The translations under genes and the position numbers were made by a program. Of a DNA stretch of 64,000 nucleotides, positions 12,245 to 38,476 are shown in pieces (position 1 is the first letter of the stretch; the number at the start of each line of letters is the position of its first letter). This DNA comes from Centroscyllium fabricii (lineage: Eukaryota), in the NCBI GenBank assembly GCA_051313645.2, contig JBNRSN020000005.1:111724001-111788000 (forward strand). The letters are read 5' to 3'. Under the pieces are notes generated by a model. That model was not told the DNA's origin. It made no database searches and saw nothing but the letters and a program-made list of their open reading frames with translations.

Positions 12245-12528
12245 AAACACGTTTAAAGGTAAGTTTTTTTTTGATTCCTTTGCAGATATTTGTCTGTGGT
12301 CTTTCAGCTTTTAAATGGGTAGGGTTTTTTTTTTGGTGAAAGTGAAAAAAAAACGGGTTTTTAACGCGATGTCAGCAGCTCTGATGGCCATCACAGCTGC
12401 TTAATTCGCGTTAAAAACCCGTTTTTTTTTCACTTTCACCAAAAAAAAAACCCTACCCATTTAAAAGCTGAAAGACCAGACAAATATCTGCAAAGGAATC
12501 AAAAAAAAACGTACCTTTAAATGTGTTT
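12245..12528. repeat. ~280-bp near-perfect inverted repeat
   Basis: 12245-12369 is the reverse complement of 12406-12528; the spacer is itself palindromic around TGGCCA. Confidence 0.9.
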
Positions 12529-12570: not shown

Positions 12571-12687
12571 AGAAACTTAAAAAAAACAAGGTGCTTCCTA
12601 GAAACTTTAAAAAAACAAGGTGCTTCCTAGAAACTTTAAAAAAACAAGGTGCTTCCTAGAAACTTAAAAAAAACAAGGTGCTTCCTA
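12571..12687. repeat. Four tandem copies of a 29-bp unit
   Basis: AGAAACTT(T/A)AAAAAAACAAGGTGCTTCCT x4, no spacers. Confidence 0.9.
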
Positions 12688-18426: not shown

Positions 18427-18591
18427 CTATTATATTTTCTTCAAGTACTGGTGGCAACTTGCCACTCAGTTCATCCTTGAGGTCATCAATAAGCTTGTAG
18501 ATAACCTTATGCAATTTGATTTTTATTCCTTTCTTAGTAGCCATCTGTTGTACTTCTTTGTTGGCATTTACATTAAAACCATACACCAGAC
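18427..18591 (-). CDS. mtif2: mtif2 coding exon
   Basis: (G)LVYGFNVNANKEVQQMATKKGIKIKLHKVIYKLIDDLKDELSGKLPPVLEENII(G); AG/GT, 165 bp. Confidence 0.95.
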
Positions 18592-18842
18592 CTAAAAATC
18601 CAAAAGAAGAGTGCGGTTTGTCTGCAAGCCATATTCCATGCATTGTTTCCAATTGCAGAAGGGGTACAGGTAACTATACAACCATCCCCTACCCTAATCC
18701 AAAGTTCTGTCTCAGTCAGAAAAGGTGAGAGTAAATGGTTCTCAGCAATGTGGGGACCCATTCTCTTGAGGCAGAGAAACTGAAATAATGATTATTTGGG
18801 GGTGAGTTCGTGCCCAGGTTGAGTGGGGGAGAAACAGGAAAT

Positions 18843-20030
18843 AAGAAACATAGAAGATAGGAGCAGGAGTAGGCCATTCGGCCCCTCGAGCCTGCTCCGC
18901 CATTAAATGAGATCATGGCTGATCATCCAAACCCAGTACCCTGTCCCTGCCTTCTCCCCATGTCCCCTGATCCCTTTAGCATTAAGGAATATATCCAACT
19001 CCTTCTTGAATATATTTAATGAACTGGCCTCCACCGCCCTCTGCGGCAGAGAATTCCACAGGTTCACCACACGGTAGATGAAGAAATTCCTCATCTCAGT
19101 CCTATATGGCTTACCCCTTATCCTTAGACTATGACCCCTGCTTCTGGACTCCCCGGCCATCAGGAAAATCCTTCCTGCATCTAGTCTGTCCAGGCCTGAC
19201 AGAATTTTATAGGTTTCGATGAGATCTACTCTCATTCTTCTAAACTACAGTGAGTACAAGCCCAATCGACACAATCTCTCCTCGTACGTCATTCTAGCCA
19301 TCCCAAGTATCAGCCTGGTGAATCTTCGCTGCACTCCTTCCATGGCAAGACCATCTCGGACCGGAAGGCCCTGCAGCGGGTAGTCAAAACTGCCCAATGA
19401 ATCACCGGCACCCAGCTACCGTCAATTGAATGCATCTACCTCAAACGCTGCCCACACACCCCAGCCACAGTCTGTTCGCCCCCCTGCCCTCCGGGAGACG
19501 CTACGGATCAATTCGCACCCGCACGACTAGATTCAAGAACAGCTTCCTCCCCAGGCCTGTCAGGCTCCTGAACTCTAACAAAAAACTCCAGTATCTGCAC
19601 ACCTGAAATGTACCTTACTGTATGCAATTGTATGTAAATTATTTGCACTACTCTCGGGAGTGAGTCTTCGTCTCGTTGTATTGTACTAGTACTCTGCAAT
19701 GACAATAAAACTTGAATTGAATTGAATCCTTCCTCAGATAAGGCGACCAAAACTGCACACAATACTCGAGGTGTGGTCTCACCAAGGCCCTGTACAGCTG
19801 CAGCAAGACATCCTTGTTCCTGTACTCGAACCCTCTTGCTACGAAGGCCAACATACTATTTGCCTTCTTAACCGCCTGCTGCACCTGCATGCTTACCTTC
19901 AGCAACTGGTGCACAAGAACACCCAGGTCTCTTTGCACTTCCCCCTTCTCCCAATCTATTGCCATTCAAATAATAATCTGCCTTCCTGTTTTTGCCACCA
20001 AAGTGGGTAACCTCACATTTATCCACATTA
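18843..20030 (-). mobile_element. CR1 LINE 3' part (RT C-terminus), interrupted by Rex1
   Basis: ORFs 18903-19235 and 19648-19965 (LYRALVRPHLEYCVQFWSP). Confidence 0.9.
19351..19726 (+). mobile_element. Rex1/Babar LINE 3' end nested in CR1
   Basis: DRKALQRVVKTAQ...RFKNSF remnants; tail AATGACAATAAAAC(TTGAA)3; CR1 flanks rejoin. Confidence 0.85.
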
Positions 20031-20518
20031 TAGTGCAAGAGAAGTTAGACAAGTAAATAAACATTTCTTTTAGTTTTTTACCCAGTGGCAGATACAGGAA
20101 AAAGCTTTCTCCATATTGCCCAACAATGCACTTTAACCCCAAATTGGTCCATAACCACCTATGACTCTATTTTCCACACCAGCATCCAGTGTTGTCCGTG
20201 AGCGCGCTAAATGAGCGCGCGTTCACGAGCGCGTTCACATTTTCGTGAACGCTGAACGAGCGCGCTCTTTCCCAGCAGCCTGAGCGAAAACGTGAGCGTC
20301 GCTCAGTTTGCAGGGATTGAGCGGCGCTCTTGCAGCGCTCTTGCGGTATGTGACGCATGCGCAGATCGTCTCCCAGCGACACGAGTCGCTGCTGCCTTCC
20401 ATGCGGGAAGGGTCGGGTCTGAAGCCATCGACGGTGAGTGTGCCGGACCTGCTGGCTGCTCTGTACTGAGTGCTCTGCGGGGCTTTGCTTTGCAAAAAAA
20501 TCTCTCTCTCTCTCTCTC

Positions 20519-23500
20519 GGGGGGGGGGGGGGGGGGGGGGGGAGAGAGACGGGGGGAGAGAGACGGGGGGGGGGGGGGGGGGGGAAGAGAGACGGGGGGG
20601 GGAAAGAGAGAGACGGGGGGGGAGAGAGAGACGGGGGGGGGGAGAGAGAGACGGGGGGGAGAGAGAGACGGGGGGGGGGAGAGAGACGGGGGGGGGAGAG
20701 AGACGGGGGGGGGAGAGAGACGGGGGGGGAGAGAGACGGGGGGGGAGAGAGACGGGGGGGGAGAGAGACGGGGGGGGGAGAGAGACGGGGGGGGGGAGAG
20801 AGACGGGGGGGGGAGAGAGACGGTGGGCGGGAGAGAGACGGGGGGGGGGAGAGAGACGGGGGGGGGGGAGAGAGACGGGGGGGGGGAGAGAGACGGGGGG
20901 GGGAGAGAGACGGGGGGGGGGAGAGAGACGGGGGGGGGGGAGAGAGACGGGGGGGGGGGAGAGAGACGGGGGGGGGGGAGAGAGACGGGGGGGGGAGAGA
21001 GACGGGGGGGGGGGAGAGAGACGGGGGGGGGGGAGAGAGACGGGGGGGGGGGGAGAGAGACGGGGGGGGGAGAGAGACGGGGGGGGGGGGGAGAGACGGG
21101 GGGGGGAGAGAGACGGGGGGGGGGGGGAGAGAGACGGGGGGGGGAGAGAGAGACGGGGGGGGAGAGAGACGGGGGGGGAGAGAGACGGGGGGGGAGAGAG
21201 ACGGGGGGGGAGAGAGACGGGGGGGGAGAGAGACGGGGGGGGAGAGAGACGGGGGGGGAGAGAGACGGGGGGGGAGAGAGACGGGGGGGAGAGAGACGGG
21301 GGGGGGAGAGAGACGGGGGGGGAGAGACGGGGGGGGGGAGAGAGACGGTGGGGGGAGAGAGAGACGGGGGGGGAGAGAGACGTGGGGGGAGAGAGACGTG
21401 GGGGGGGAGAGAGACGTGGGGGGGGAGAGAGACGGGGGGGGGGGAGAGAGACGGGGGGGTGGGGGGGAGAGAGACGGGGGGGTGGGGGGGAGAGAGACGG
21501 GGGGGTGGGGGGGGAGAGAGACGGGGGGGTGGGGGGAGAGAGACGGTGGGGGGAGAGAGACGGTGGGGGGGAGAGAGACGGGGGGGGAGAGAGACGGGGG
21601 GGGAGAGAGACGGGGGGGGGAGAGAGACGGACGGGGGGAGAGAGACGGACGGGGGGGGAGAGAGACGGACGGGGGGGGAGAGAGACGGAGGGGGGGGAGA
21701 GAGACGGGGGGGGGGGAGAGAGACGGGGGGGGAGAGAGACGGGGGGGGAGAGAGACGGGGGGGGAGAGAGACGGGGGGGGGAGAGAGACGGGGGGGGGAG
21801 AGAGACGGGGGGGGGGGAGAGACGGGGGGGGGGAGAGAGACGGGGGGGGGAGAGAGACGGGGGGGGAGAGAGACGGGGGGGGAGAGAGACGGGGGGGGGA
21901 GAGAGACGGGGGGGGGAGAGAGACGGGGGGGGGGAGAGACGGGGGGGGGGAGAGAGACGGGGGGGGGGGGAGAGAGACGGGGGGGGGAGGGGGAGAGAGA
22001 CGGGGGGGGGAGGGGGGAGAGAGACGGGGGGGGAGGGGGGAGAGAGACGGGGGGGGGAGGGGGGAGAGAGACGGGGGGGGGGGAGAGAGACGGGGGGGGG
22101 GAGAGAGACGGGGGGGGGGAGAGAGACGGGGGGGGGGAGAGAGACGGGGGGGGGAGAGAGACGGGGGGGGGAGAGAGACGGGGGGGGAGAGAGACGGGGG
22201 GGGAGAGAGACGGGGGGGGGGGGAGAGAGACGGGGGGGAGGGGAGAGAGACGGGGGGGGAGAGAGACGGGGGGGGAGAGAGACGGTGGGGGGGGGGAGAG
22301 AGACGGGGGGGGAAGAGAGAGACGGGGGGGGGGAAGAGAGAGACGGGGGGGGGGAAGAGAGAGACGGGGGGGGGGAAGAGAGAGACGGGGGGGGGGGAAG
22401 AGAGAGACGGGGGGGGGGAAGAGAGAGACGGGGGGGGGAAGAGAGAGACGGGGGGGGGAAGAGAGAGACGGGGGGGGAGAGACGGGGGGGAAGAGAGAGA
22501 CGGGGGGGGGGAGACGGGGGGGGGGAGACGGGGGGGGGGGGAGAGAGACGGGGGGGGAGAGAGACGGGGGGGGGAGAGAGACGGGGGGGGAGGGAGAGAG
22601 ACGGGGGGGAGGGAGAGAGACGGGGGGGGGAGAGACACGGGGGGGGGAGAGAGACGGGGGGGGGAGAGAGACGGGGGGGGGGGAGAGAGACGGGGGGGGG
22701 GAGAGAGACGGGGGGGGGGAGAGAGACGGGGGGGGGGAGAGAGACGGGGGGGGGAGAGAGACGGGGGGGGGGAGAGAGACGGGGGGGGGGGAGAGAGACG
22801 GGGGGGGGAGAGAGACGGGGGGGGGGGAGAGAGACGGGGGGGGGGAGAGAGACGGGGGGGGGGGAGAGAGACGGGGGGGGGGGGAGAGAGACGGGGGGGG
22901 GAGAGAGACGGGGGGGGGGGAGAGACGGGGGGGGGGGAGAGACGGGGGGGGGGAGAGAGACGGGGGGGGGGAGAGAGACGGGGGGGGGGGGGGGAGAGAG
23001 ACGGGGGGGGGAGAGAGAGACGGGGGGGGAGAGAGACGGGGGGGGAGAGAGACGGGGGGGGAGAGAGACGGGGGGGGAGAGAGACGGGGGGGGAGAGAGA
23101 CGGGGGGGGAGAGAGACGGGGGGGGAGAGAGACGGGGGGGGAGAGAGACGGGGGGGAGAGAGACGGGGGGGGGAGAGAGACGGGGGGGGGAGAGACGGGG
23201 GGGGGAGAGAGACGGTGGGGGGAGAGAGAGACGGGGGGGGAGAGAGACGTGGGGGGAGAGAGACGTGGGGGGGGAGAGAGACGTGGGGGGGGAGAGAGAC
23301 GGGGGGGGGGAGAGAGACGGGGGGGTGGGGGGGAGAGAGACGGGGGGGTGGGGGGAGAGAGACGGGGGGGTGGGGGGGGAGAGAGACGGGGGGGTGGGGG
23401 GGAGAGAGACGGTGGGGGGAGAGAGACGGTGGGGGGGAGAGAGACGGGGGGGGAGAGAGACGGGGGGGGAGAGAGACGGGGGGGGAGAGAGACGGGGGGG

Positions 23501-26500
23501 GGAGAGAGACGGACGGGGGGGGAGAGAGACGGACGGGGGGGGAGAGAGACGGGGGGGGGGAGAGAGACGGGGGGGGGGGGGAGAGAGACGGGGGGGGAGA
23601 GAGACGGGGGGGGAGAGAGACGGGGGGGGGAGAGAGACGGGGGGGGAGAGAGACGGGGGGGGGGGAGAGACGGGGGGGGGGAGAGAGACGGGGGGGGGAG
23701 AGAGACGGGGGGGGAGAGAGACGGGGGGGGGAGAGAGACGGGGGGGGGAGAGAGACGGGGGGGGGGAGAGAGACGGGGGGGGAGAGAGACGGGGGGGGGG
23801 AGAGAGACGGGGGGGGGGGAGAGAGACGGGGGGGGGAGGGGGGAGAGAGACGGGGGGGGGAGGGGGGAGAGAGACGGGGGGGGGAGGGGGGAGAGAGACG
23901 GGGGGGGGAGGGGGGAGAGAGACGGGGGGGGGGGGGAGAGAGACGGGGGGGGGGAGAGAGACGGGGGGGGGGAGAGAGACGGGGGGGGGGAGAGAGACGG
24001 GGGGGGGAGAGAGACGGGGGGGGGAGAGAGACGGGGGGGGGAGAGAGACGGGGGGGGGAGAGAGACGGGGGGGGAGAGAGACGGGGGGGGGGGGAGACGG
24101 GGGGGGGGGAGAGAGACGGGGGGGAGGGGAGAGAGACGGGGGGGGAGAGAGACGGGGGGGGAGAGAGACGGTGGGGGGGGGGGAGAGAGACGGGGGGGGA
24201 AGAGAGAGACGGGGGGGGGAAGAGAGAGACGGGGGGGGGGAAGAGAGAGACGGGGGGGGGGGAAGAGAGAGACGGGGGGGGGAAGAGAGAGACGGGGGGG
24301 GGAAGAGAGAGACGGGGGGGGGAAGAGAGAGACGGGGGGGGAGAGACGGGGGGGAAGAGAGAGACGGGGGGGGGGAGACGGGGGGGGGGGGGAGACGGGG
24401 GGGGGGGGAGAGAGACGGGGGGGGAGAGAGACGGGGGGGGGAGAGAGACGGGGGGGGAGGGAGAGAGACGGGGGGGAGGGAGAGAGACGGGGGGGGGAGA
24501 GAGACGGGGGGGGAGAGACACGGGGGGGGGAGAGAGACGGGGGGGGGAGAGAGACGGGGGGGGGGAGAGAGACGGGGGGGGGGAGAGAGACGGGGGGGGG
24601 GGGGAGAGAGACGGGGGGGGGGAGAGAGACGGGGGGGGGGAGAGAGACGGGGGGGGGGGAGAGAGACGGGGGGGGGGAGAGAGACGGGGGGGGGGGGGAG
24701 AGAGACGGGGGGGGGGGGAGAGAGACGGGGGGGGGAGAGAGACTGGGGGGGGAGAGAGACTGGGGGGGGAGAGAGACTGGGGGGGGAGAGAGACTGGGGG
24801 GGGAGAGAGACTGGGGGGGGGGAGAGAGACGGGGGGGGGAGAGAGACGGGGGGGGGAGAGAGACGGGGGGGGGGAGAGAGACGGGGGTGGGGGGGGGAGA
24901 GAGACGGGGGTGGGGGGGAGAGAGACGGGGGGGGGAGAGAGACGGGGGGGGGAGAGAGACGGGGGGGGGAGAGAGACGGGGGGGGGAGAGAGACGGGGGG
25001 GGGAGAGAGACGGGGGGGGGAGAGAGACGGGGGGGGGGAGAGAGACGGGGGGGGGGGGAGAGAGACGGGGGGGGAGAGAGAGACGGGGGGGGGGAGAGAG
25101 ACGGGGGGGGGGGGGGAGAGAGACGGGGGGGGGGAGAGAGACGGGGGGGGGGAGAGAGACGGGGGGGGGGGAGAGAGACGGGGGGGGGGGAGAGAGACGG
25201 GGGGGGGGGAGAGAGACGGGGGGGGGGAGAGAGACGGGGGGGGGAGAGAGACGGGGGGGGGAGAGAGACGGGGGGGGGAGAGAGACGGGGGGGGGAGAGA
25301 GACGGGGGGGGGAGAGAGACGGGGGGGGGAGAGAGACGGGGGGGGGAGAGAGACGGGGGGGGAGAGAGACGGGGGGGGGAGAGAGACGGGGGGGGGAGAG
25401 AGACGGGGGGGGGGAGAGAGACGGGGGGGGGGGAGAGAGACGGGGGGGGAGAGAGACGGGGGGGGAGAGAGACGGGGGGGGAGAGAGACGGGGGGGGAGA
25501 GAGACGGGGGGGGGGAGAGTGGGGGGGGAGAGAGACGGGGGGGGGAGTGAGACGGGGGGGGGGGGAGTGAGACGGGGGGGGAGAGAGACGGGGGGGAGAG
25601 AGACGGGGGGGGGGGGGAGTGAGACGGGGGGGGAGAGAGACGGGGGGGGAGAGACGGGGGGGGAGAGACGGGGGGGGGGAGAGACGGGGGGGGGGGAGAG
25701 ACGGGGGGGGGGGAGAGACGGGGGGGGGGAGAGACGGGGGAGAGAGACGGGGGAGAGAGACGGGGGAGAGAGAGACGGGGGAGAGAGAGACGGGGGGAGG
25801 AGAGAGACGGGGGGGGGAGAGAGACGGGGGGGGGGAGAGAGACGGGGGGGGGGGGAGAGAGACGGGGGGGGGGAGAGAGACGGGGGGGGAGAGAGAGACG
25901 GGGGGGGGAGAGAGAGACGGGGGGGGGAGAGAGAGACGGGGGGGGGAGAGAGAGACGGGGGGGGAGAGAGAGACGGGGGGGGAGAGAGAGACGGGGGGGG
26001 AGAGAGAGACGGGGGGGGAGAGAGAGACGGGGGGGGAGAGAGAGACGGGGGGGGGAGAGAGAGACGGGGGGGGGAGAGAGAGACGGGGGGGGGAGAGAGA
26101 GACGGGGGGGGAGAGAGAGACGGGGGGGGAGAGAGAGACGGGGGGGGGAGAGAGAGACGGGGGGGGGGAGAGAGAGACGGGGGGGGGGGGAGAGAGAGAC
26201 GGGGGGGGAGAGAGAGACGGGGGGGGAGAGAGAGACGGGGGGGGAGAGAGAGACGGGGGGGGAGAGAGAGACGGGGGGGGGAGAGAGAGACGGGGGGGGG
26301 AGAGAGAGACGGGGGGGGGGAGAGAGAGACGGGGGGGGGGGGGAGAGAGAGACGGGGGGGGAGAGAGAGACGGGGGGGGAGAGAGAGACGGGGGGGGGAG
26401 AGAGAGACGGGGGGGGGAGAGAGAGACGGGGGGGGGAGAGAGAGACGGGGGGGGGAGAGAGAGACGGGGGGGGAGAGAGAGACGGGGGGAGAGAGAGACG

Positions 26501-29500
26501 GGGGGAGAGAGAGACGGGGGGGGGAGAGAGAGACGGGGGGGGGGGAGAGAGAGACGGGGGGGGAGAGAGAGACGGGGGGGGAGAGAGAGACGGGGGGGGA
26601 GAGAGAGACGGGGGGGGAGAGAGAGACGGGGGGGGGAGAGAGAGACGGGGGGGAGAGAGAGACGGGGGGGGGAGAGAGAGACGGGGGGGGAGAGAGAGAC
26701 GGGGGGGGGAGAGAGAGACGGGGGGGGAGAGAGAGACGGGGGGGGGGAGAGAGACGGGGGGGGGAGAGAGACGGGGGGGGGGAGAGAGACGGGGGGGGAG
26801 AGAGAGACGGGGGGGGGAGAGAGAGACGGGGGGGGGAGAGAGACGGGGGGGGGAGAGAGACGGGGGGGGGGAGAGAGACGGGGGGGGAGAGAGACGGGGG
26901 GGGGGGAGAGAGACGGGGGGGGGGGGAGAGAGACGGGGGGGGGGGAGAGAGACGGGGGGGGGGGGGAGAGAGACGGGGGGGGGGGAGAGAGACGGGGGGG
27001 GGAGAGAGACGAGACGGGGGGGGGAGAGAGACGGGGGGGGGGGGGGAGAGAGACGGGGGGGGGAGAGAGACGGGGGGGGGAGAGAGACGGGGGGGGGGGG
27101 GAGAGAGACGGGGGGGGGGAGAGAGACGGGGGGGGGAGAGAGACGGGGGGGGGAGAGAGACGGGGGGGGGAGAGAGACGGGGGGGGGGGAGAGAGACGGG
27201 GGGGGGGGAGAGAGACGGGGGGGGGGGGGAGAGAGACGGGGGGGGAGAGAGACGGGGGGGAGAGAGACGGGGGGGGAGAGAGACGGGGGGGGGGAGAGAG
27301 ACGGGGGGGGAGAGAGACGGGGGGGAGAGAGACGGGGGGGGAGAGAGACGGGGGGGGAGAGAGACGGGGGGGAGAGAGACGGGGGGGAGAGAGACGGGGG
27401 GGGGAGAGAGACGGGGGGGGAGAGAGACGGGGGGGAAGAGAGACAGGGGGGGGAGAGAGACAGGGGGGGGAGAGAGACAGGGGGGGGGGGAGAGAGACGG
27501 GGGGGGGGGAGAGAGACGGGGGGGGGGGAGAGAGACGGGGGGGGGAGGAGAGAGACGGGGGGGGGGGGAGGAGAGAGACGGGGGGGAGAGAGACGGGGGG
27601 GGGAGAGAGACGGGGGGGGGAGAGAGACGGGGGGGGAGAGAGACGGGGGGGTGAGAGAGACGGGGGGGTGAGAGAGACGGGGGGGGGAGAGAGACGGGGG
27701 GGGAGAGAGACGGGGGGGGAGAGAGACGGGGGGGGGAGAGAGACGGGGGGGGGAGAGAGACGGGGGGGGGGGAGAGAGACGGGGGGGGGGGGAGAGAGAC
27801 GGGGGGGGGGGAGAGAGACGGGGGGGAGAGAGACGGGGGGGAGAGAGACGGGGGGGGGAGAGAGACGGGGGGGGGAGAGAGACGGGGGGGGAGAGAGACG
27901 GGGGGGGGAGAGAGACGGGGGGGGGAGAGAGACGGGGGGGGGGAGAGAGACGGGGGGGGGGGAGAGAGACGGGGGGGGGAGAGAGACGGGGGGGGGGAGA
28001 GAGACGGGGGGGGGGGAGAGAGACGGGGGGGAGAGAGACGGGGGGAGGAGAGAGACGGGGGGGGGAGAGAGACGGGGGGGGGAGAGAGACGGGGGGGGGG
28101 GGAGAGAGACGGGGGGGGGGGAGAGAGACGGGGGGGGGGGGAGAGAGACGGGGGGGGGAGAGAGACGGGGGGGAGAGAGACGGGGGGGGGAGAGAGACGG
28201 GGGGGGGGAGAGAGACGGGGGGGAGAGAGACGGGGGGGGAGAGAGACGGGGGGGAGAGAGAGAGACGGGGGGGGGGGGGTGGAGAGAGACGGGGGGGGGG
28301 GGGAGAGAGCCGGGGGGGGGGGGAGAGAGACGGGGGGGGCGAAGAGAGAGACGGGGGGGGGGGAAGAGAGAGACGGGGGGGGGGGAAGAGAGAGACGGGG
28401 GGGGGGGAAGAGAGAGACGGGGGGGGGGAAGAGAGAGACGGGGGGGGGGAAGAGAGAGACGGGGGGGGGGAAGAGAGAGACGGGGGGGGGGAAGAGAGAG
28501 ACGGGGGGGGGAAGAGAGAGACGGGGGGGGGGAAGAGAGAGACGGGGGGGGGGGAAGAGAGAGACGGGGGGGGGGGAAGAGAGAGACGGGGGGGGGGAAG
28601 AGAGAGACGGGGGGGGGGAAGAGAGAGACGGGGGGGGGGGAAGAGAGAGACGGGGGGGGGGGAAGAGAGAGACGGGGGGGGGGGAAGAGAGAGACGGGGG
28701 GGGGAAGAGAGAGACGGGGGGGAAGAGAGAGACGGGGGGGGAAGAGAGAGACGGGGGGGGAAGAGAGAGACGGGGGGGGAAGAGAGAGACGGGGGGGGAA
28801 GAGAGAGACGGGGGGGGGGGAAGAGAGAGACGGGGGGGGGAAGAGAGAGACGGGGGGGGGGGGGAAGAGAGAGACGGGGGGGAGAGAGACGGGGGGGGAG
28901 AGAGACGGGGGGGGAGAGAGACGGGGGGGGAGAGAGACGGGGGGGGAGAGAGACGGGGGGGGAGAGAGACGGGGGGGAGAGAGACGGGGGGGAGAGAGAC
29001 GGGGGGGAGAGAGACGGGGGGGAGAGAGACGGGGGGGAGAGAGACGGGGGGGAGAGAGAAGGGGGGGGAGAGAGACGGGGGGGAGAGAGACGGGGGGGGA
29101 GAGAGACGGGGGGGGGAGAGAGACGGGGGGGGGAGAGAGACGGGGGGGGGAGAGAGACGGGGGGGGGAGAGAGACGGGGGGGGGAGAGAGACGGGGGGGG
29201 GAGAGAGACGGGGGGGGGGAGAGAGACGGGGGGGGGGAGAGAGACGGGGGGGGGGGAGAGAGACGGGGGGGGAGAGAGACGGGGGGGGAGAGAGACGGGG
29301 GGGGGGGGAGAGAGACGGGGGGGGGGGAGAGAGACGGGGGGGGGAGAGAGACGGGGGGGGGGAGAGAGACGGGGGGGGGGGGAGAGAGACGGGGGGGGGG
29401 AAGAGAGACGGGGAGGGGGGGAGAGAGAGACGGGGAGGGGGGGAGAGAGAGACGGGGGGGGAGAGAGAGACGGGGGGGGAGAGAGAGACGGGGGGGGGGA

Positions 29501-30106
29501 GAGAGAGACGGGGGGGGGGAGAGAGAGACGGGGGGGGGGGAAGAGAGAGACGGGGGGGGGGGAAGAGAGAGACGGGGGGGGGGGAAGAGAGAGACGGGGG
29601 GGGGGAAGAGAGAGACGGGGGGGGAGAGAGACGGGGGGGGAGAGAGACGGGGGGGAGAGAGACGGGGGGGGAGAGAGACGGGGGGAGAGAGACGGGGGGG
29701 AGAGAGACGGGGGGGAGAGAGACGGGGGGGAGAGAGACGGGGGGGAGAGAGACGGGGGGGAGAGAGACGGGGGGGGAGAGAGACGGGGGGGGGGGAGAGA
29801 GACGGGGGGGGAGAGAGACGGGGGGGGGGAGAGAGACGGGGGGGGGGGGAGAGAGACGGGGGGGGGGGGGAGAGAGACGGGGGGGGGGAAGAGAGACGGG
29901 GAGGGGGGGAGAGAGAGACGGGGGGGGAGAGAGAGACGGGGGGGGAGAGAGAGACGGGGGGGGGAGAGAGAGACGGGGGGGGGGGAGAGAGAGACGGGGG
30001 GGGGGGGAGAGAGAGACGGGGGGGGGGGGGAGAGAGAGACGGGGGGGGGGGGAGAGAGAGACGGGGGGGGGAGAGAGAGACGGGGGGGGGTGAGACACGG
30101 GGGGGG
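20519..30106. repeat. ~9.6-kb G-rich minisatellite, unit (GA)3-5C plus a G-run of about 6-13
   Basis: Directly visible; roughly 550 units of ~17 bp (estimate), preceded by (TC)9; no stop codons in most frames. Confidence 0.97.
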
Positions 30107-30121
30107 TCTCTCGCTCATATT

Positions 30122-30509
30122 TAGAAAGATAGGAGCAGGAGTAGGCCATTCAGCCCTTCAAGCCTGCTCCACCATTCAATGAGATCATGGCTGATCATCC
30201 AAACCCTGTAACCCGCCCCTGCCCTCTCCCCATTATCCCTCGATCCCTATCGAGCCTGCACTGACACATATCCCACCCTATTCCCATATATTCAATCTCC
30301 CTAACACTAAGGGTAAATTTATCCTGGTCAATCAACCTAACCCTGCACATCTTTGGACTGTGGGAGGAAACCGGAGCACCCGGAGGAAACCCACGCAGAC
30401 ACGGCGAGAATGTGCAAACTCCACACAGATAGTACCCGAGGCTGGATTTGAACCCGGGTCTCCAGTGCTGTGAGACAGCAGTGCTAAGCACTGTGCCACC
30501 GTGCCGCCC
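30122..30509 (-). mobile_element. HE1-like tRNA-derived V-SINE, full length
   Basis: Head GGGCGGCACGGTGGCACAGTG...GGTTCAAATCC (A/B boxes), V-domain, CR1-like tail. Confidence 0.88.
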
Positions 30510-31222
30510 TATATACTCAGCCTGTGTATATACATACAGACAGTTCTCTATATCGGATATTTGTTCCTCCTGCTTCATAATTTGCATTGAGGATGTTCTA
30601 TTGAAAAATAATAGCTCGGGGCAGCGCATTAGAAGAAAAGAAAAAAAAAAATGAACTTTGAACTGGTTCATTTTTGAGCTGCGAACTGAAGTTCAAAATT
30701 CAAAATTATGAACTATGAACTTGAACTAGTTCATTTTAAAATGATTGAACTGAACTTTGAGCTAGCTCTTGTTAAGTGTGAACTTTCCCAACACTGCCAG
30801 CATCCTTATAGATTTTCTGCTATCAACATTTAAGAACATAGAGGCTCTATGGAGTAACTACCACAGATTTAGAAGGAATAGGAAGTGCCAAACAAAACTA
30901 CTGGAATTCTTAAAGTATGTAGCTAAATTAGTTGATGATGACAAAAAGACTGAAAACTGGCTAAGCAATAAAAGGCAGATGATGATAGTAAGTAGAAAAG
31001 TTGTGGCGTCGGGTCAGCAACTGGTTGCATTCTGTTTCAAATCCCCTCTGTTTATTATTTATAAATAATATGATGGCAACTATTGGTAATGTAGAATTTG
31101 CAGATGACACCAAGCTTTATGGTCAGGTGGCAAGTATAAGAGAAATGGTGGCTTTCAAAAGGCTCTGAACCAATTAAATGGACGGATTTAGAAAGTGCAT
31201 ATGGATTTTGTCAATAGATAAT

Positions 31223-31968
31223 GGGCCGGAAATTCGGGTTGGAGGCTTCCCGCGAGTGTAAGCCTCCAACCTACGCTTGCCTACCGCGCCGGCCATTGAG
31301 CTGTGCCCCCACATGGAATCCCAATGCGGGACCTTCCTGAAGTGCCGGCGCGCCACGCTCCCGGATCCGAGTGGCGCAGTTAGTGTGAGGGATCGCGCGG
31401 GCCACGGAGAGTCAATCGGAGCACAGAATGCTCCATTCATAAGTTTGACAGGAAGATCTGTCAAACGTATGAATACTACAAGCCCCAAAACCAAAGTAAA
31501 TCTTCAAATAATTCTTTTAAAAACATCACATTTTTTAAAATTACTATCAATTACATAAATTAGCTATTTTAAACAAAAAATTTAACATTTTGAAAAAAAT
31601 TAAAGTTTTTAACAGGGCTAAAAATAAACTTACCTTTCGTTAAAGTATTTAAAAATAAAAAACCTGTGGAAAAAATGTTTTAAATTGAATTAATTTACCA
31701 CTTACCTTCTGAAAAGGGGTCTTTGCGCAGGAAAATAGGAGCCGTATCTTTCTCCACACTTACCCAGAGACAGAACCTGTAAAAAAATCGGAAGTGCATT
31801 GCGCACGCGCTGCCACGCACGCATTCCGATATCTGACCCCTTCTGTCAGGGGATCGGAAGTGCCGGTTTCGCGCGCATGCGCTGTGCATGCACGAAACAG
31901 TACTTCGGATGGGCCTATGGGTGAGTACCCAGCGCGTACTCACCCGGGGCGACCGGAATTTCTGGGCC
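31223..31968. mobile_element. Harbinger/PHIS-like MITE (copy D)
   Basis: Ends GGGCCGGAAATTCGG / CCGGAATTTCTGGGCC; flanks AAT / ATT; inverted homolog of 59289-60034. Confidence 0.8.
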
Positions 31969-32350
31969 ATTAGTTACGTACGCTGACTTTGATGGGACAA
32001 GTGAACCTTACATGTTTTATGTTTATATGTTCTTGAAACATTTCCTGATGTAGATCTGGTGTCATGTTTTGTATATAAATGAATCCAGAATTGATTCTAC
32101 TGAGGAGTAAGTTTGGTATTATAAATTTTCTTGGACAGTATAAAAACTTAACCCATAGGTTTCATCCCAGCATGACACAAGCATTAGTGCAGTAAGCGTC
32201 GTTAATTGGGAGTGTGTCAGTGCTGGGGAATCAAACACTTTTCCAGACAATGTCAGCATCAGCCACTTTAAGTTAGATATAGCATTCCCAGATGCAAAGG
32301 AAATCTCCCTTTACTGTGCTTCAACAAAGATAAATGACCTACCTTATAGG

Positions 32351-35300
32351 GTCATAGAGTAATACAGCACAGAAAGAGGCCCTTCGGCCCATCGCGTCCG
32401 TGCTGCCCATCAATCCCAGTCTATACTAGTCCCATTTTCCCACATTTGGTCCATAGCCTTGTATGCTGCAGCATTTCAAGTGCTCATCCAAATGCATTTT
32501 GAAAGTTGTGAGGGTTTCCGCCTCTACCACCCTCTCAGGCAGTGAGTTCCAGACTCCAACCACCCTCTGGGTGAAAAAGTTCTTCCTCACATCCCCACGA
32601 TACCTCCTGCCTCTTAACCTGAAATTATGCCCCCCTAGTTATTGACCCCTCAACCAAGGGAAAAAGATCCACTCCATCCACCTTATCTATTCCCCTCATA
32701 ATTTTGTATACCTCAATCAGGTTCTCCCTCAGCCTCCTCTGCTCCAAGGAAAACAACCCCAGCCTGTCCAGTCTCTCTTCATAGCTGAGGCTCCCCAGCC
32801 CAGGCAGCATCCTGGTGAATCTCCTCTGCACCCTCTCCAAAGCTATTACATCCTTGCTATAGTGTGGTGACCAGAACTGCACACAGTACTCCAGCTGTGG
32901 TCTTACCAGCGTTTTGTACAGCTCCATCATAGCCTCCCTGCTCTTATATTCTATGCCTTGGCTAATGAAGGCAAGTATCCCATATGGGCGGCACGGTGGC
33001 ATAGTGGTTAGCACTGTTGCCTCACAGCTCTGGAGACCCGGGTTCAAATCCAGCCTCGGGTGACTATCTGTGTGGAGTTTGCACATTCTCCCCGTGTCTG
33101 CGTGGGTTTCCTCCGGGTGCTCCAGTTTCCTCCCACAGTCCAAAGATGTGCGGGTTAGGTTGATTGGCCAGGATAAATTGACCCTTAGCGTTAGGGGGAT
33201 TGAATATGTGGGGTTACGGGGATAGGGTGGGATACGTGGGCAGGCTCGGTAGGGATCGAGGGATATGGGGAGAGGGCAGGGGCGGGGTGCTGGGTTTGGA
33301 TGATCAGCCATGATCTCATTGAATGGCGGAGCAGGCTCGAAGGGCCGAATGGCCTACTCCTGCTTCTATGTTTCTATGTTTCTATGCCTTTTTAACCACC
33401 TTATCCACCTGTCCTGCTGCCTTCAGGGACCTATGTACCTGCACACCAAGGTCCCTCTGATCCTCTGCCTTCCCCAGCATCCTACCATTCATGGTGTATT
33501 CCCTTGCCATGTTAGACCTACCGAAATGCATCACCTCACACTTTTCAGGATTAAATTCCATTTGCCACTGTTCCGCCCATCTGACCAACTCATCTATTCG
33601 TCCTGCATGTTGCGGATTTCCTCCTCAGTATTTACCAACCCCCCAACTTTTGTGTCATCTGGAAACTTACTGATCATGCCTTTTACATTAATATCTAAAT
33701 CGTTAATATAGACTACAAACAGCAAGGAACCCAACACCGATCCCTGCGGTACCCCACTGGACACAGGCTGCCAGTCACAAAAACAACCTTCGACCATCAC
33801 CGTCTGCCTCCTGTCACTAAGCCAGTTTTGGATCCACTGTGCCAAGGTGCCCTGGATCCCATGGGCTCTTACCTTCTTGACCAGTCTCCTATGCGGGACC
33901 TTATCAAAAGCCTTACTAAAATCCATGTATACCACGTCCACTGCACTACCCTCATCCACACACCTGGTTACCTCTTCAAAAAATTCAATCAAATTAGTCA
34001 GACACGATCTTCCCTTGATGAAGCCATGCTGACTATCCTTAATTAATCCTTGCCTCTCCAAGTAGAGACGAATTTCATCCCTCAGGATTCTTTCTAGTAA
34101 TTTCCCCACCACTGATGTCAGGCTCACCGGCCTGTAATTCCCTGGTTTCTCCCTACTACCTTTCTTGAATAATGGCACTACATTGGCCATTCTCCAGTCC
34201 TCCGGCACATCCCCTGTGGCCAGAGAGGTTCTGAAAATTTGTGTCAGAGCCCCTGCAATCTCTTCCTTAGCCTCAGCCAGCAGCCTGGGATACATCTCGT
34301 CAGGGCCTGGAGACCTATCCACTTTTAAGCCTGCTAAAACCGCTAGTACCTCCTCCCTGTCAATACTAATATGATCAAGTGTATCGCATTCCTCCTGACC
34401 TATTTCAATGTCCACATTGCCCTTCTCCACAGTGAACACAGATGCAAAAAATTAATTCAAAACACCACCTACATCCTCTGGCTCTACACAGAGATTCCCA
34501 CTTTGGTCCCCACCCTTTCCCTTGTTATCCTCTTGCCCTTAATATATTTTTAAAACATCATAGGATTTTCCTTTATTTTGCCCACCAGGGTTATCTCATG
34601 GCCCCTCCTCGCTCTCCTAATTTCTTTTTTTAAGTAACCCCCTGCACCTTCTATACTCCTCTAGAGCCTCCTCTGTCTTTAGTTCTTTATGTCTGCCGAA
34701 AGCCCCCCTTTTCTTCCGAATCAATTCACGTATATCCCTTGACATCCAAGGTTCCCTGGGCTTATTGGTCCCACCCTTGACCTTACGGGGAACATGTTTC
34801 CCTTGCACTTTCTCAATTTCCTTTCTGAACGCCTCCCACTGTTCTGATGCGGACTTTCCTTCGAGTAGCTGGTCCCAGTCCACTTGGGCCAGCTCTAGCC
34901 TTATCATATTAAAATCGGCCTTGCCCCAATTTAGAACCTTTATTTCTGGTCCATCGTTGTCCTTTTCCATTACTACCTTAAATATTACCGAATTATGGTC
35001 ACTGTCCCCAAAGTGCTCTGCTACGGACACTTCTTCCACTTGTCCATCCTCATTTCCCAGAATTAAGTCTAATATCGCCCCCTCCCTTGTAGGACTTCCT
35101 ACATACTGGCTCAAAAGCTCTCCTGGATGCACTTTAAGAATTCTGCACCCTTTAAGCCCTTCACACTTTGGCTATCCCAGTCAATATTGGGAAAGCTAAA
35201 ATCCCCCACTATTACTACCCTATTATTTCCACACTTCTCCAAGATTTGCCTGCAAATCTGTTCCTCTATTTCCCTCTGACTGTTTGGGGGTCTGTAGTAT

Positions 35301-35600
35301 ACTCCCAGTAATGTGCTTGCCCCCTTCTTATTTTTAAGTTCCACCCAAATAGCCTCATTAGAGGACCCTGCCAATATATCAGCCATTCTTACAGCAGTAA
35401 TTGACTCCTTAATTAATATCGTGACACCCCCTCCTCTTTCCCCCCCCCCCCTCCCTGAAGATTCGATACCCCGGAATATTGAGCTGCCATTCCTGCCCCT
35501 CCCTCAACCATGTCTCTGTAATGGCAACAATATCATATTCCCATGTGCTTAACAATAGCTTCAATTCATCCCCCTTATTCGCCAGACTCCTTGCATTATC
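32351..35600 (-). mobile_element. CR1 LINE, most of ORF2 (APE endonuclease plus RT), frameshifted
   Basis: ORFs 35409-35693, 35111-35386, 34617-35132, 33594-34439 (YMDFSKAFD, GVPQGSVLG), 33382-33588. Confidence 0.92.
32986..33386 (+). mobile_element. HE1-like V-SINE nested in CR1
   Basis: Full head, V-domain and (TTTCTATG)n tail; the CR1 flanks rejoin at TATG. Confidence 0.88.
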
Positions 35601-36511
35601 TTCATTCTTTAAATTATCTGCATTCTCCACACACCAAAGAAGTAAAAGCAAATATACTGGGTTCTGGGGAAACCACATGCTTAGTATGCACATAAAAATG
35701 TTGTCTCAACACTATAGATAGGTGGTGCTGCAAATTCCAATGTTGTATAAAGCCCCAGTGACAGGGCAAATAACTATTCATCGCCTAACTACAAATTCCA
35801 GTTAAGACCTAAAATAATGGCTGGTTGGGATCGTGGTATGTGGAGGATGCAGATCATACAAATAAAGAGGATGGCTGTACAAGGACAGTAAGCAATTCTT
35901 CTTCTTCAGCAAGTATCTTCATACACCAAAGGAGTATAGTTTAGGAGTAAGGAAGCCCCTGTAGATGGGCCCCAACATCAGCTGCCAGGCCAGATCTCCC
36001 AAAGACATTATTGTGCGCAGTAGTCAAATTTAAACAGTAATGTTTAGTAAATTTGTGAGGATTAATCCCTGTGTCAGCTTTCAGATACTGTCAATTGGAA
36101 CCTGGTTAAGAGATATCAAGACATAGCCGCTTATGAGATGATAGCAGTGCAGAATGCACTCAACCGTCCACTTACACACCCACTGCTTGGTCAGTGGCTT
36201 GCCTCCGGTCTTTGCACCAAAGGAAACAAATAACGGTCAAGACTTCCTAAATTGCTTTGTACAAGAGATATACAAACTGATGACTCAATGAGCATCTACA
36301 TTCCAAGTAGAAGCCTTGCTCCCATTCACCTATAAGCTGATAGAGCAGTCATCGAGTGATTGTTATGGGAGGACCATTATTTTTTTATCAAATTGGCTGC
36401 AGTGTAAATAAACTTGTTGAGAATCGAATTGTGTGTGTACGGCACTATATCATTCTTTGGCCGCATATGTCCCTGAAATCTGACCGCCTTTCGGAGAGAT
36501 AATTCGCTGTA

Positions 36512-37391
36512 CAGGTTGCGCACCGGAAATCCGGCACGGGCGGGACCAGGCCCGTGCCGGGAAAGTGAAAAAACCGGCAGAATGAAGTCGGTCAGGGCGC
36601 ATGCGCACACCATGCAAAATGGCCGCGCGCATGCGCACAACATTGGAAATGGCCGCCGAACGATGCAGGAAAAGTCCACAACTAGTCGTCCTCTGAAAGT
36701 GCACGGCACCTAATTTAAAAAGCGGCAGCCAGGTTTCTGGATGCCCATTGCCCCGAGAGAGCCGGGCCCCCGGGAGCCGGGGATGCAGAGGGGAGGCTGG
36801 CTTTGGGAGTTCACAGCAAAGGAGTAATTGATGTTGAGGGGGGCTGAGTGGGGCCATGTGTATGTGCGGATTGGTGCAGGGGGCGGGGGCGGGAGCGGGA
36901 GGGGAGCTATTTTTAGAGTGAGTGCTCACTGGATGTGCTAGTACTGCCGAGACACGAGCCGGAGCTGTTCACTCACTCAGCCAGCCGCTCATCCACTGAC
37001 TCCAGCAGCAGCAAAGCCGGGTAAGGAACTCCGCTCAACATTCCCATTCCCATTCCCGACTCCCGCACCGGGCCAGCCTGCTCGCCGGGAACCGTGCGCT
37101 TCCAGTTGTTTTATTTTCGCCCTGACGCCACGGAAGGCCCGGCGGCCGTTTTGAATGATCTGCGCATGCGCTAGCCATCCGGCGACGCATGCGCAGATCA
37201 TTCAAAACACCCGGCAGTCATTTTGAATGATCTGCGCATGCGCTCGCCGTTCAGCGGCGCATGCGCAGATCATTCGCCGAAGCTGCGATCGCGGCTGCCA
37301 TCTTGCGCATGCGTAGTGCAGTCGGGGCAATTTGTTCCGGCAGACTGAAGCTGCCGGCGTTTCGGGTCACGGATTTTCGGTGCACAACCTG
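36512..37391. mobile_element. Tigger-like MITE, CpG-rich, with repeated GCGCATGCGC palindromes
   Basis: TIRs CAGGTTGCGCACCGGAAATCCG / CGGATTTTCGGTGCACAACCTG, TA on both sides. Confidence 0.82.
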
Positions 37392-38335
37392 TACCTGAAT
37401 TCTGCTTAGTAACTAGGAGGCAGTTAGATTAGTAACATCCCTCCACTGCATCAGTGTGAATGTTACCATCTATCCTGTTTGACCACTCGGGGTGAGATTA
37501 TGAATTTAGTGTAGAATTACAAGAGTTTAATGCTGTTTACCCGCATCATTTAGGAAGTGGATTATAAGAACATACGAAAAAGCCAAAGACGATAAAAGAC
37601 TATTCAGCCCATGAAGCTCATCGCTCTAATATTTCAATTCCCCCAGCCTAGCTTTCAACTGCATCTTGAACTCCCCTAATGTCTTTGATTCCAATTCCAT
37701 ACCTGGTAAGTCTTTCCAAATGTGAAACACCCTGAGAACAAAGATTTTTTTAAATTTTACTTTTCACTCATTTAAAATTGTATTGTCATTCTACTATCTG
37801 ACTAACCTTAACAGTAATATTCTGGGTTCACTATGTCATTTCACTCTTTATACAACACGGTGAAGTTAACATTTTTCTTTCTCAATACTGTAAAGCCTAA
37901 GCTTATCTAATCTTTCATCATAGCTCCCACTTTCATCCCACCAATCCAAGCTGGAATTGAACCTGGGCCCCAGAGGTAAAGAGGATAGAGCGATAACCAT
38001 GGCACCACTCCGTTCCTCTATCCACATGTTCCTGGGCACCTACAGTCAGAACATCATTGCATAACCCCACATCTTGTGTACAATCTGATTTTAAAAGAAC
38101 GACAGTTCTATAAATATTCCAGACCTCAAAGTAAACCTGGCTGAGTGAAGGCCTGGCTTTTGCTTTCCCATTGGGTGAGTGATATCAGAGAATCACCATT
38201 TCATCCACCTCCTCAGGCAAAGGCTAGAGTGAGGAACTCCAGCATAACATCTCAGCTACATTGCAATTACAGGAGGGGAAATAGCAGATAAAAACTAAAT
38301 ATATTTACCCATTAAAGGCAAAATTGAACCCTTAC

Positions 38336-38476
38336 CTGAAAAAATCTCAGCTGAAACAATATCATTTTCACTGATATCTCCAACACCAAAGTGGATCACA
38401 TCGAGGTTACACTGTTCATCAGCATCATAACCATCTAGGATGTTTAGAATGGCTTCAACAGACCCATCAACATCAC
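38336..38476 (-). CDS. mtif2: mtif2 coding exon (not in the ORF track)
   Basis: (G)[46 protein letters not shown](G); IF2 DVxGSVEA motif; AG/GT, 141 bp. Confidence 0.95.

Follow-up and report, generated by a model that had tools for sequence, protein, structure and literature searches.

A minisatellite-filled transposon in an mtif2 intron

We analysed a 64,000-nucleotide stretch of the Centroscyllium fabricii genome (GenBank assembly GCA_051313645.2, contig JBNRSN020000005.1, positions 111,724,001 to 111,788,000 of the forward strand), here called the window, in which a hAT-family DNA transposon copy, most of it a guanine-rich minisatellite, lies within an intron of the gene mtif2. The gene is on the minus strand, and both exons around the element match the Pfam family IF-2; the upstream exon also aligns to mitochondrial IF-2 chains (E = 1e-17), and six exon matches to the IF-2 family were found on the contig. 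The host intron (18592-38335) is 19,744 bp long, of which the element (20187-30796; 10,610 bp) makes up 54% and its tandem array (9,589 bp, or 90.4% of the element) makes up 48.6%. These values bear out a preliminary description of the same DNA, which had placed the array in a 19.7-kb mtif2 intron, given it about half of that intron and put its share of the element at about 90%.

The element is flanked by exact 8-bp target-site duplications (TSDs; CCAGCATC) and terminates in CAGTGTTG and CAACACTG. The perfect terminal inverted repeat (TIR) is limited to the 8-bp CAGTGTTG, shorter than first described, and TGARC/GYTCA subterminal motifs are present at both ends, 10 on the left and 13 on the right. 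The 8-bp TSD, the short TIRs and the subterminal repeats all agree with the hAT superfamily, defined by an 8-bp TSD and short TIRs of 5-27 bp (PMC3517528). The preliminary description missed a ~390-bp short interspersed nuclear element (SINE), which most family copies include within the element. The SINE is missing from the shortest copies (707-926 bp; SINE-less loci are L255, L257, L259 and L262), and free-standing SINE copies with ~82-90% identity occur at other loci. Compared with Rfam, it gave nothing above threshold and no tRNA match, with two weak sub-threshold matches only. It may resemble the shark HE1/V-SINE type, which combines a tRNA head with a V domain and a tail derived from a LINE (long interspersed nuclear element). 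The parts of the locus are collected in Table 1.

Table 1. Coordinates in the window of the element, its parts and the adjoining mtif2 exons
Feature	Position	Strand	Remark
mtif2 exon downstream of the host intron	18427..18591	-	
Left TSD CCAGCATC	20179..20186	+	Present once in the empty sites of organisms G and H
Left end: 8-bp TIR and ten TGARC/GYTCA subterminal motifs	20187..20331	+	130/145 bases identical to L249
CpG-rich filler with splice-donor-like GGTGAGT	20332..20494	+	Not homologous to the coding partner
A7 and (TC)9: pyrimidine tract around the array, left half	20495..20518	+	
G-run/GA minisatellite (558 units, type Gn(AG)3-4AC), predicted to form G-quadruplexes and triplexes	20519..30106	+	
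Two ~1.85-kb blocks with variant units in the same order	21080..24700 (approximate)	+	Variant maps
Right half of the (TC)n tract	30107..30116	+	
SINE passenger, ~390 bp	30117..30509	-	
Right end with 8-bp TIR and subterminal TGAAC/GTTCA motifs	30589..30796	+	Common to the coding partner
Right TSD CCAGCATC	30797..30804	+	
mtif2 exon upstream of the host intron	38336..38476	-	

Predicted structure of the array

The array is 70% G and 94% purine. The hexamer GAGACG occurs in 515 of its 558 units and CpG in 529, in keeping with the earlier statement that nearly every unit carries both; the observed/expected CpG ratio is 1.40. Variant units are grouped in local homogeneous blocks, and the members of one internal duplication of ~1.85 kb differ by a few unit gains and losses. 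The long open reading frames across the array are by-products of a repeat that has no stop codons.

The array had been presented as a former of G-quadruplexes (G4) with short loops. We found that 498 of the 557 spacers between G-runs are 8-11 nt long, and therefore the loops are not short and the classical G4 pattern is rare: the canonical G3-N1-7 pattern has 24 matches in the 9.6-kb array, compared to 140 when loops of up to 12 nt are allowed. The dominant spacing lies outside the usual definition of four tracts of three or more guanines joined by 1-7-nt loops. The G4Hunter score is high (mean 2.21 over the array; at least 1.5 in 98% of array windows versus 0.8% in the rest of the window), and ViennaRNA predicts a G4 for one array 80-mer. 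The G4 label is nevertheless too narrow for a tract of this purine content, because purine mirror repeats cover 98% of the array and make triplex DNA as plausible as G4. Predicted from the letters of the array, a triplex is thus an equal candidate.

A young family with an empty site in two relatives

Exact 25-mers from the element's ends have at least 6,365 (right) and 6,035 (left) matches in the 7.2-Gb genome, while reversed controls have none. The preliminary description had said that it would fail if the ends were single-copy and never paired; they are multi-copy and paired in thousands of copies, which upholds its view of an array bracketed by hAT-type ends and an exact 8-bp CCAGCATC duplication. 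Identical 8-bp flanks were found in 110 of 122 complete copies (the window counted in), at 108 different sites with the preference S-Y-Y-R-Y-R-R-S (position 2: C 53, T 30; position 7: A 44, G 41) and without TA at positions 4-5. This preference cleanly matches neither the Ac consensus nTnnnnAn nor the Buster consensus nnnTAnnn (PMC8961557, PMC3517528). In a tree built from 119 copies, end branches have a median length of 0.004, and the family is therefore young.

The empty-site check that had been proposed was carried out on contigs. In organisms G and H, contigs from runs X20 and X21 go from the left flank through a single CCAGCATC into the right flank, with 4 differences from the window in 151 flank positions and 13 in ~294, respectively. 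At 88% identity, no X20 or X21 contig covers the element's left end, whereas coverage is heavy in X16 and X17. This fits a recent arrival, although a hole in a set of contigs proves little. In organism F, X16 and X18, from which the assembly itself may derive, show the filled right junction only, and contigs drop rare variants. A scan of metagenomes for the right TIR gave 19 loci. At 8 of these, host-like DNA carries related non-coding ends (~75-85% identity), and no transposase was seen at the 19 loci.

We translated 33 stretches from the interior of sister copies, and none matched Pfam. The family resembles MITEs (miniature inverted-repeat transposable elements) in lacking coding capacity, in its conserved TIRs and in its more than 6,000 copies. 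MITEs are described as short and uniform, at about 400 bp (PMC9659126), whereas copies here range from 0.7 to 12.2 kb and are mostly 1-2.5 kb. The element is MITE-like in its working, but we file it as a non-autonomous hAT.

Several copies have unusual arrangements. The 12.2-kb copy (L245-L247; G000:C1:120.295 Mb) contains a perfect palindrome of left filler with ~110-bp arms and several insertions of long interspersed nuclear elements (LINEs) between exact TSDs. L224 is a head-to-tail pair of copies; L111 and L112 form a close inverted pair 12 kb apart, possibly a local hop; and the pairs L171/L172 and L029/L030 share TSDs and are likely segmental duplications. A 37-kb distance between left and right ends on contig C2, considered as a giant array, resolved into three separate small copies. 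An antisense LINE with a (TTGAA)n tail sits inside the (TC)n tract at L054, L089, L091, L092, L094, L097, L163-L165, L169, L178, L245-L248, L253 and L263, and the LINE proteins of L097 and L164 are 99% identical; the element may offer insertion points to a LINE that targets TC/GA. Sister subfamilies also carry captured inserts of several hundred bases (L033, L035, L037, L036, L046, L045, L056, L173 and L260), none of which matched Pfam among those scanned, and a Pack-type capture is possible.

An apparently intact coding partner

A coding partner came to light on contig C1 when we matched the positions of left ends with those of right ends. The partner, at L249:115-3337 (G000:C1:97205464-97208686), is a 3,223-bp element with an exact TSD, in which an exon of 671 codons is joined by a second, short one. 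It has 130 of 145 left-end bases and the last 208 right-end bases in common with the window element, including most of the subterminal motifs, and nothing between. Other copies lie at L256 and L265-L276. There are at least 40 copies, all 40 scored out of 163 candidates being 99-100% identical, and exon 1 is stop-free in 11 of the 12 copies fetched. L249 is apparently an intact autonomous hAT and a candidate active element, and its ends support the hAT identity proposed for the window copy; active vertebrate hATs are described as rare (PMC4890040). A route through the Pfam domain Dimer_Tnp_hAT (150 of 2,497 candidates scored, 40 stretches fetched) gave no transposase with the family's ends, and L077 was a chance neighbour.

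The exon-1 protein of L249, taken alone, matched no Pfam family and no PDB chain. A profile of this exon and 30 relatives (profile A3) matched the Hermes transposase with E = 2.4e-23, and L249 has D193, D260 and E660 at the Hermes-aligned catalytic positions, together with a BED-like finger and a CxxH motif. The domain Dimer_Tnp_hAT was matched by 10 of 31 relatives, but not by L249 exon 1 alone. In its finger, DDE residues, CxxH motif and 8-bp TSD the partner is like Hermes (PDB 6dww, 4d1q) and teleost hATs.

Among 74 protein matches, the closest named ones are from teleosts (~60-78% identity), and they include unnamed teleost hATs from Megalops (P0001, 70%) and Stegastes (P0007, 78% over 77% of the query). 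None of the 74 is named as coming from a cartilaginous fish, a group whose database sampling may be thin. In a quick tree of 34 rows, L249 is nested among teleost sequences with a Shimodaira-Hasegawa-like approximate likelihood ratio (SH-aLRT) of 100. These relationships suggest a likely horizontal transfer of the hAT.

The array travels short and most likely grew in place

The preliminary description had left undecided whether the array moved with the element or expanded where it now lies. Our measurements suggest that it did both. The 25-mer at the junction of the G-array subfamily has at least 432 genome matches, about 7% of the family (432/6,365), and the idea that the family disperses G-run arrays holds to this extent. 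All 29 other copies that come nearest to the window in their left end carry the array. Of 60 copies picked by the junction out of the first 100 listed, 58 contain five or more G-runs. Array copies have their first and last units in common.

As had been proposed, we searched the genome with both ends and measured the enclosed arrays. Across 92 other copies that are closed and free of gaps, the G-runs span 159-3,794 bp with a median of 880 bp, and the span exceeds 2 kb in two (left out were two gap-ended copies, a copy that a LINE interrupts, another having two G-runs, and the L224 tandem pair). The window array, 9,588 bp by this measure, is 11 times the median and is the longest among the family copies measured; that the family typically consists of about 90% array is not supported, with a median array of 0.88 kb and a G-array subfamily of the size given above. 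In the two copies whose left end is 100% identical, the arrays measure 833 and 380 bp. An exact two-unit 35-mer has 86 matches in the genome, 37 of which sit in the window. Variants of the CpG-decay kind are rarer in the window array than in 76 sisters (3/518 versus 76/1,880; Fisher P = 1e-5), as recent amplification is expected to give. Consequently, the data point to an array that travels with its subfamily as a short tract and that, most likely, then grew to 9.6 kb in place.

Alternatively, a ~10-kb element may have jumped into mtif2 whole, its array having reached its length in a parent copy. In favour of this, two copies are fairly long (L086, 3.8 kb; L118, 3.3 kb), and the 12.2-kb copy swollen by LINEs has exact TSDs, though its growth after insertion is possible. 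The exact 35-mer forms a long cluster at no other element-bound locus, however, and the nearest tree neighbours are short-arrayed (L026, 380 bp; L009, 565 bp), which together make a jump of the long form extremely unlikely.

A different concern is that assembly inflated the length of an array that is, like the element, real and long; the 1.85-kb duplication, for instance, could be two alleles stacked together. The large internal duplication is compatible with such an error, six of the seven arrays found outside the element (next section) have a 200-N gap inside or within ~1 kb, and long-read sequencing is biased against AG repeats of the triplex-forming kind according to bioRxiv 10.64898/2026.07.13.738322. 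Against this, the window contains no N, the two ~1.85-kb blocks differ in units that are not homopolymers, and the ~5.5 kb beyond them has variant blocks of its own. Even with the duplication removed, ~7.7 kb would be left, twice the next longest copy. We therefore consider an inflated length improbable.

The (TC)n site has hosted other repeats. Sister subfamilies carry about ten other units (~5-58 bp) at the same site, or (TC)n alone; these units are mostly made from neighbouring filler, the stretch left of the pyrimidine tract. At L028, a short inverted copy of the first units stands at the far end of the array, indicating local fold-back copying. The G-array may have begun as a captured GA-rich array or as an inversion of part of the element's own pyrimidine tract.

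Equally long arrays exist without the transposon

We compared the 21 loci with the exact 35-mer. Fourteen are inside the element and seven have no element ends: neither a left nor a right end was present within the 10-30 kb fetched around any of the seven. These free G/GA arrays are 1.6-12.3 kb long and grade into plain GA-rich DNA or come after LINE tails. Free arrays reach the same length without the transposon, and growth therefore belongs to the motif. The earlier proposal of an element that seeds or disperses expandable G4 arrays accordingly stands in its dispersal, with at least 432 copies, and is not supported where it would make the transposon the source of long arrays.

A stronger form of that proposal, on the model of miDNA4, would make the transposon the genome-wide source of the minisatellite and the free arrays old copies minus their ends. 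The majority of exact-35-mer loci within the element would agree with it, and the free array on C667 begins at a gap able to hide a left end. Nevertheless, the ends are missing from all seven free arrays, the loss of both is unlikely in such a young family (end branches of median length 0.004), and the free arrays merge into GA-rich DNA or trail LINE tails. We judge this origin to be quite unlikely; the free arrays exist, and no link to the element, such as an escape into free satellite, was found.

Free arrays of 2-12 kb lie at C667:115.394-115.406 Mb (L220-L222), C678:110.117 Mb (L225) and C856:28.015-28.021 Mb (L231), all in G000, where they adjoin CpG-island-like sequence resembling gene starts. 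The neighbour on C667 resembles a first coding exon, possibly of a USB1-like gene.

Consequences for the host gene

The array's G-runs lie on the template strand of mtif2, and it has been suggested that such an array could affect the gene's elongation, stability and methylation. An expanded array might alter mtif2 output through pausing, methylation or splicing, and the template orientation, the G4Hunter mean and the CpG enrichment would agree with such an effect. However, other mtif2 introns are similar in size (exon positions 11-19 kb apart), the array is ~1.9 kb from the closest exon, and the insertion is missing from the mtif2 of two relatives, organisms G and H. An effect large enough to matter is very unlikely, and the array is most likely a tolerated passenger.

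Elsewhere in the window, CR1-like LINE fragments are numerous in mtif2 introns between 32600 and 49500, and most of them share the minus strand with the gene. A long inverted repeat at 12336-12520 (~60-bp arms), beside a 29-bp x4 tandem repeat (12571-12687), is probably another small DNA element.

Discussion

The data support, with a probability of about 0.82, a young non-autonomous hAT copy that was likely moved by its coding partner, likely inserted into the mtif2 intron with an array of ~1 kb and likely expanded in place to 9.6 kb. In the proposed mechanism, the partner's transposase would bind the common subterminal motifs and mobilise the element in trans, as the shared ends and the family's youth suggest. 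The array would then grow by slippage and unequal exchange, and folding of the purine strand into a G4 or triplex may favour its expansion. The element would be the carrier of the repeat, while expansion would be a property of the motif in this genome.

Several observations weigh against this explanation. Our measurements cover only 92 of the G-array copies, which number at least 432, and among the 60 picked by the junction 2 run into assembly gaps and could have long arrays. The 9.6-kb length rests on an assembly. The G-array copies need four label changes in the tree of ends, so that a single origin of the array is not established. Finally, the hAT call depends on the family profile, exon 1 alone being unmatched.

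The finding is a new family of a known type, the non-autonomous DNA transposon with an internal variable array, of which miDNA4 and Xstir are examples (PMC12628747, PMC9659126). Like the miDNA4 MITE of Xenopus tropicalis, the element has an internal tandem repeat of variable copy number that is long in some copies. As those sources describe it, miDNA4 is a Tc1/mariner element with one satellite monomer, whereas here a hAT with a coding partner carries a 16-22-bp G/GA unit, with about ten other units in sister subfamilies. The clam DTC84 and pearl-type elements are similar in that conserved flanks serve as a cassette for a variable array with ordered variants beside a microsatellite (PMC3879986), an arrangement also found here. 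DTC84 is described with an AA duplication and up to five repeats of ~160-bp units, compared to an 8-bp duplication and ~10 to 558 short units in the present family. The MER6 MITE with a V-SINE domain likewise shows a DNA transposon derivative dispersing a captured SINE (PMC6887750); it is an inactive mariner derivative in mammals, and the abstract of that paper describes no array. A published description of a hAT carrying a G4 minisatellite was not found in the literature; Repbase and Dfam were outside this search, and a name may exist there.

A broader scenario can be drawn, which we regard as speculative and, taken whole, unlikely. A hAT from bony fish would have entered the cartilaginous-fish lineage recently, and the pyrimidine tract of its non-coding derivative would have become a repeat factory, producing at least ten minisatellites at one site, in a burst spanning less than ~2% divergence, by error-prone gap repair tied to transposition. 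The G4/triplex unit, spread to more than 400 loci, would run away mainly where the G-strand is the template of host transcription, with mtif2 as an example.

On its own, the mtif2 locus counts as an ordinary outlier in a process already known, and the family is more useful than the locus. The L249 type offers an apparently intact vertebrate hAT transposase in dozens of near-identical copies, and the roughly ten repeat units that have arisen at one site give a replicate view of minisatellite birth. Above all, the family provides hundreds of near-identical, recent copies of a minisatellite predicted to be prone to G4 or triplex folding, placed in varied settings, and these copies are a natural experiment on the causes of expansion, including transcription, strand and methylation.

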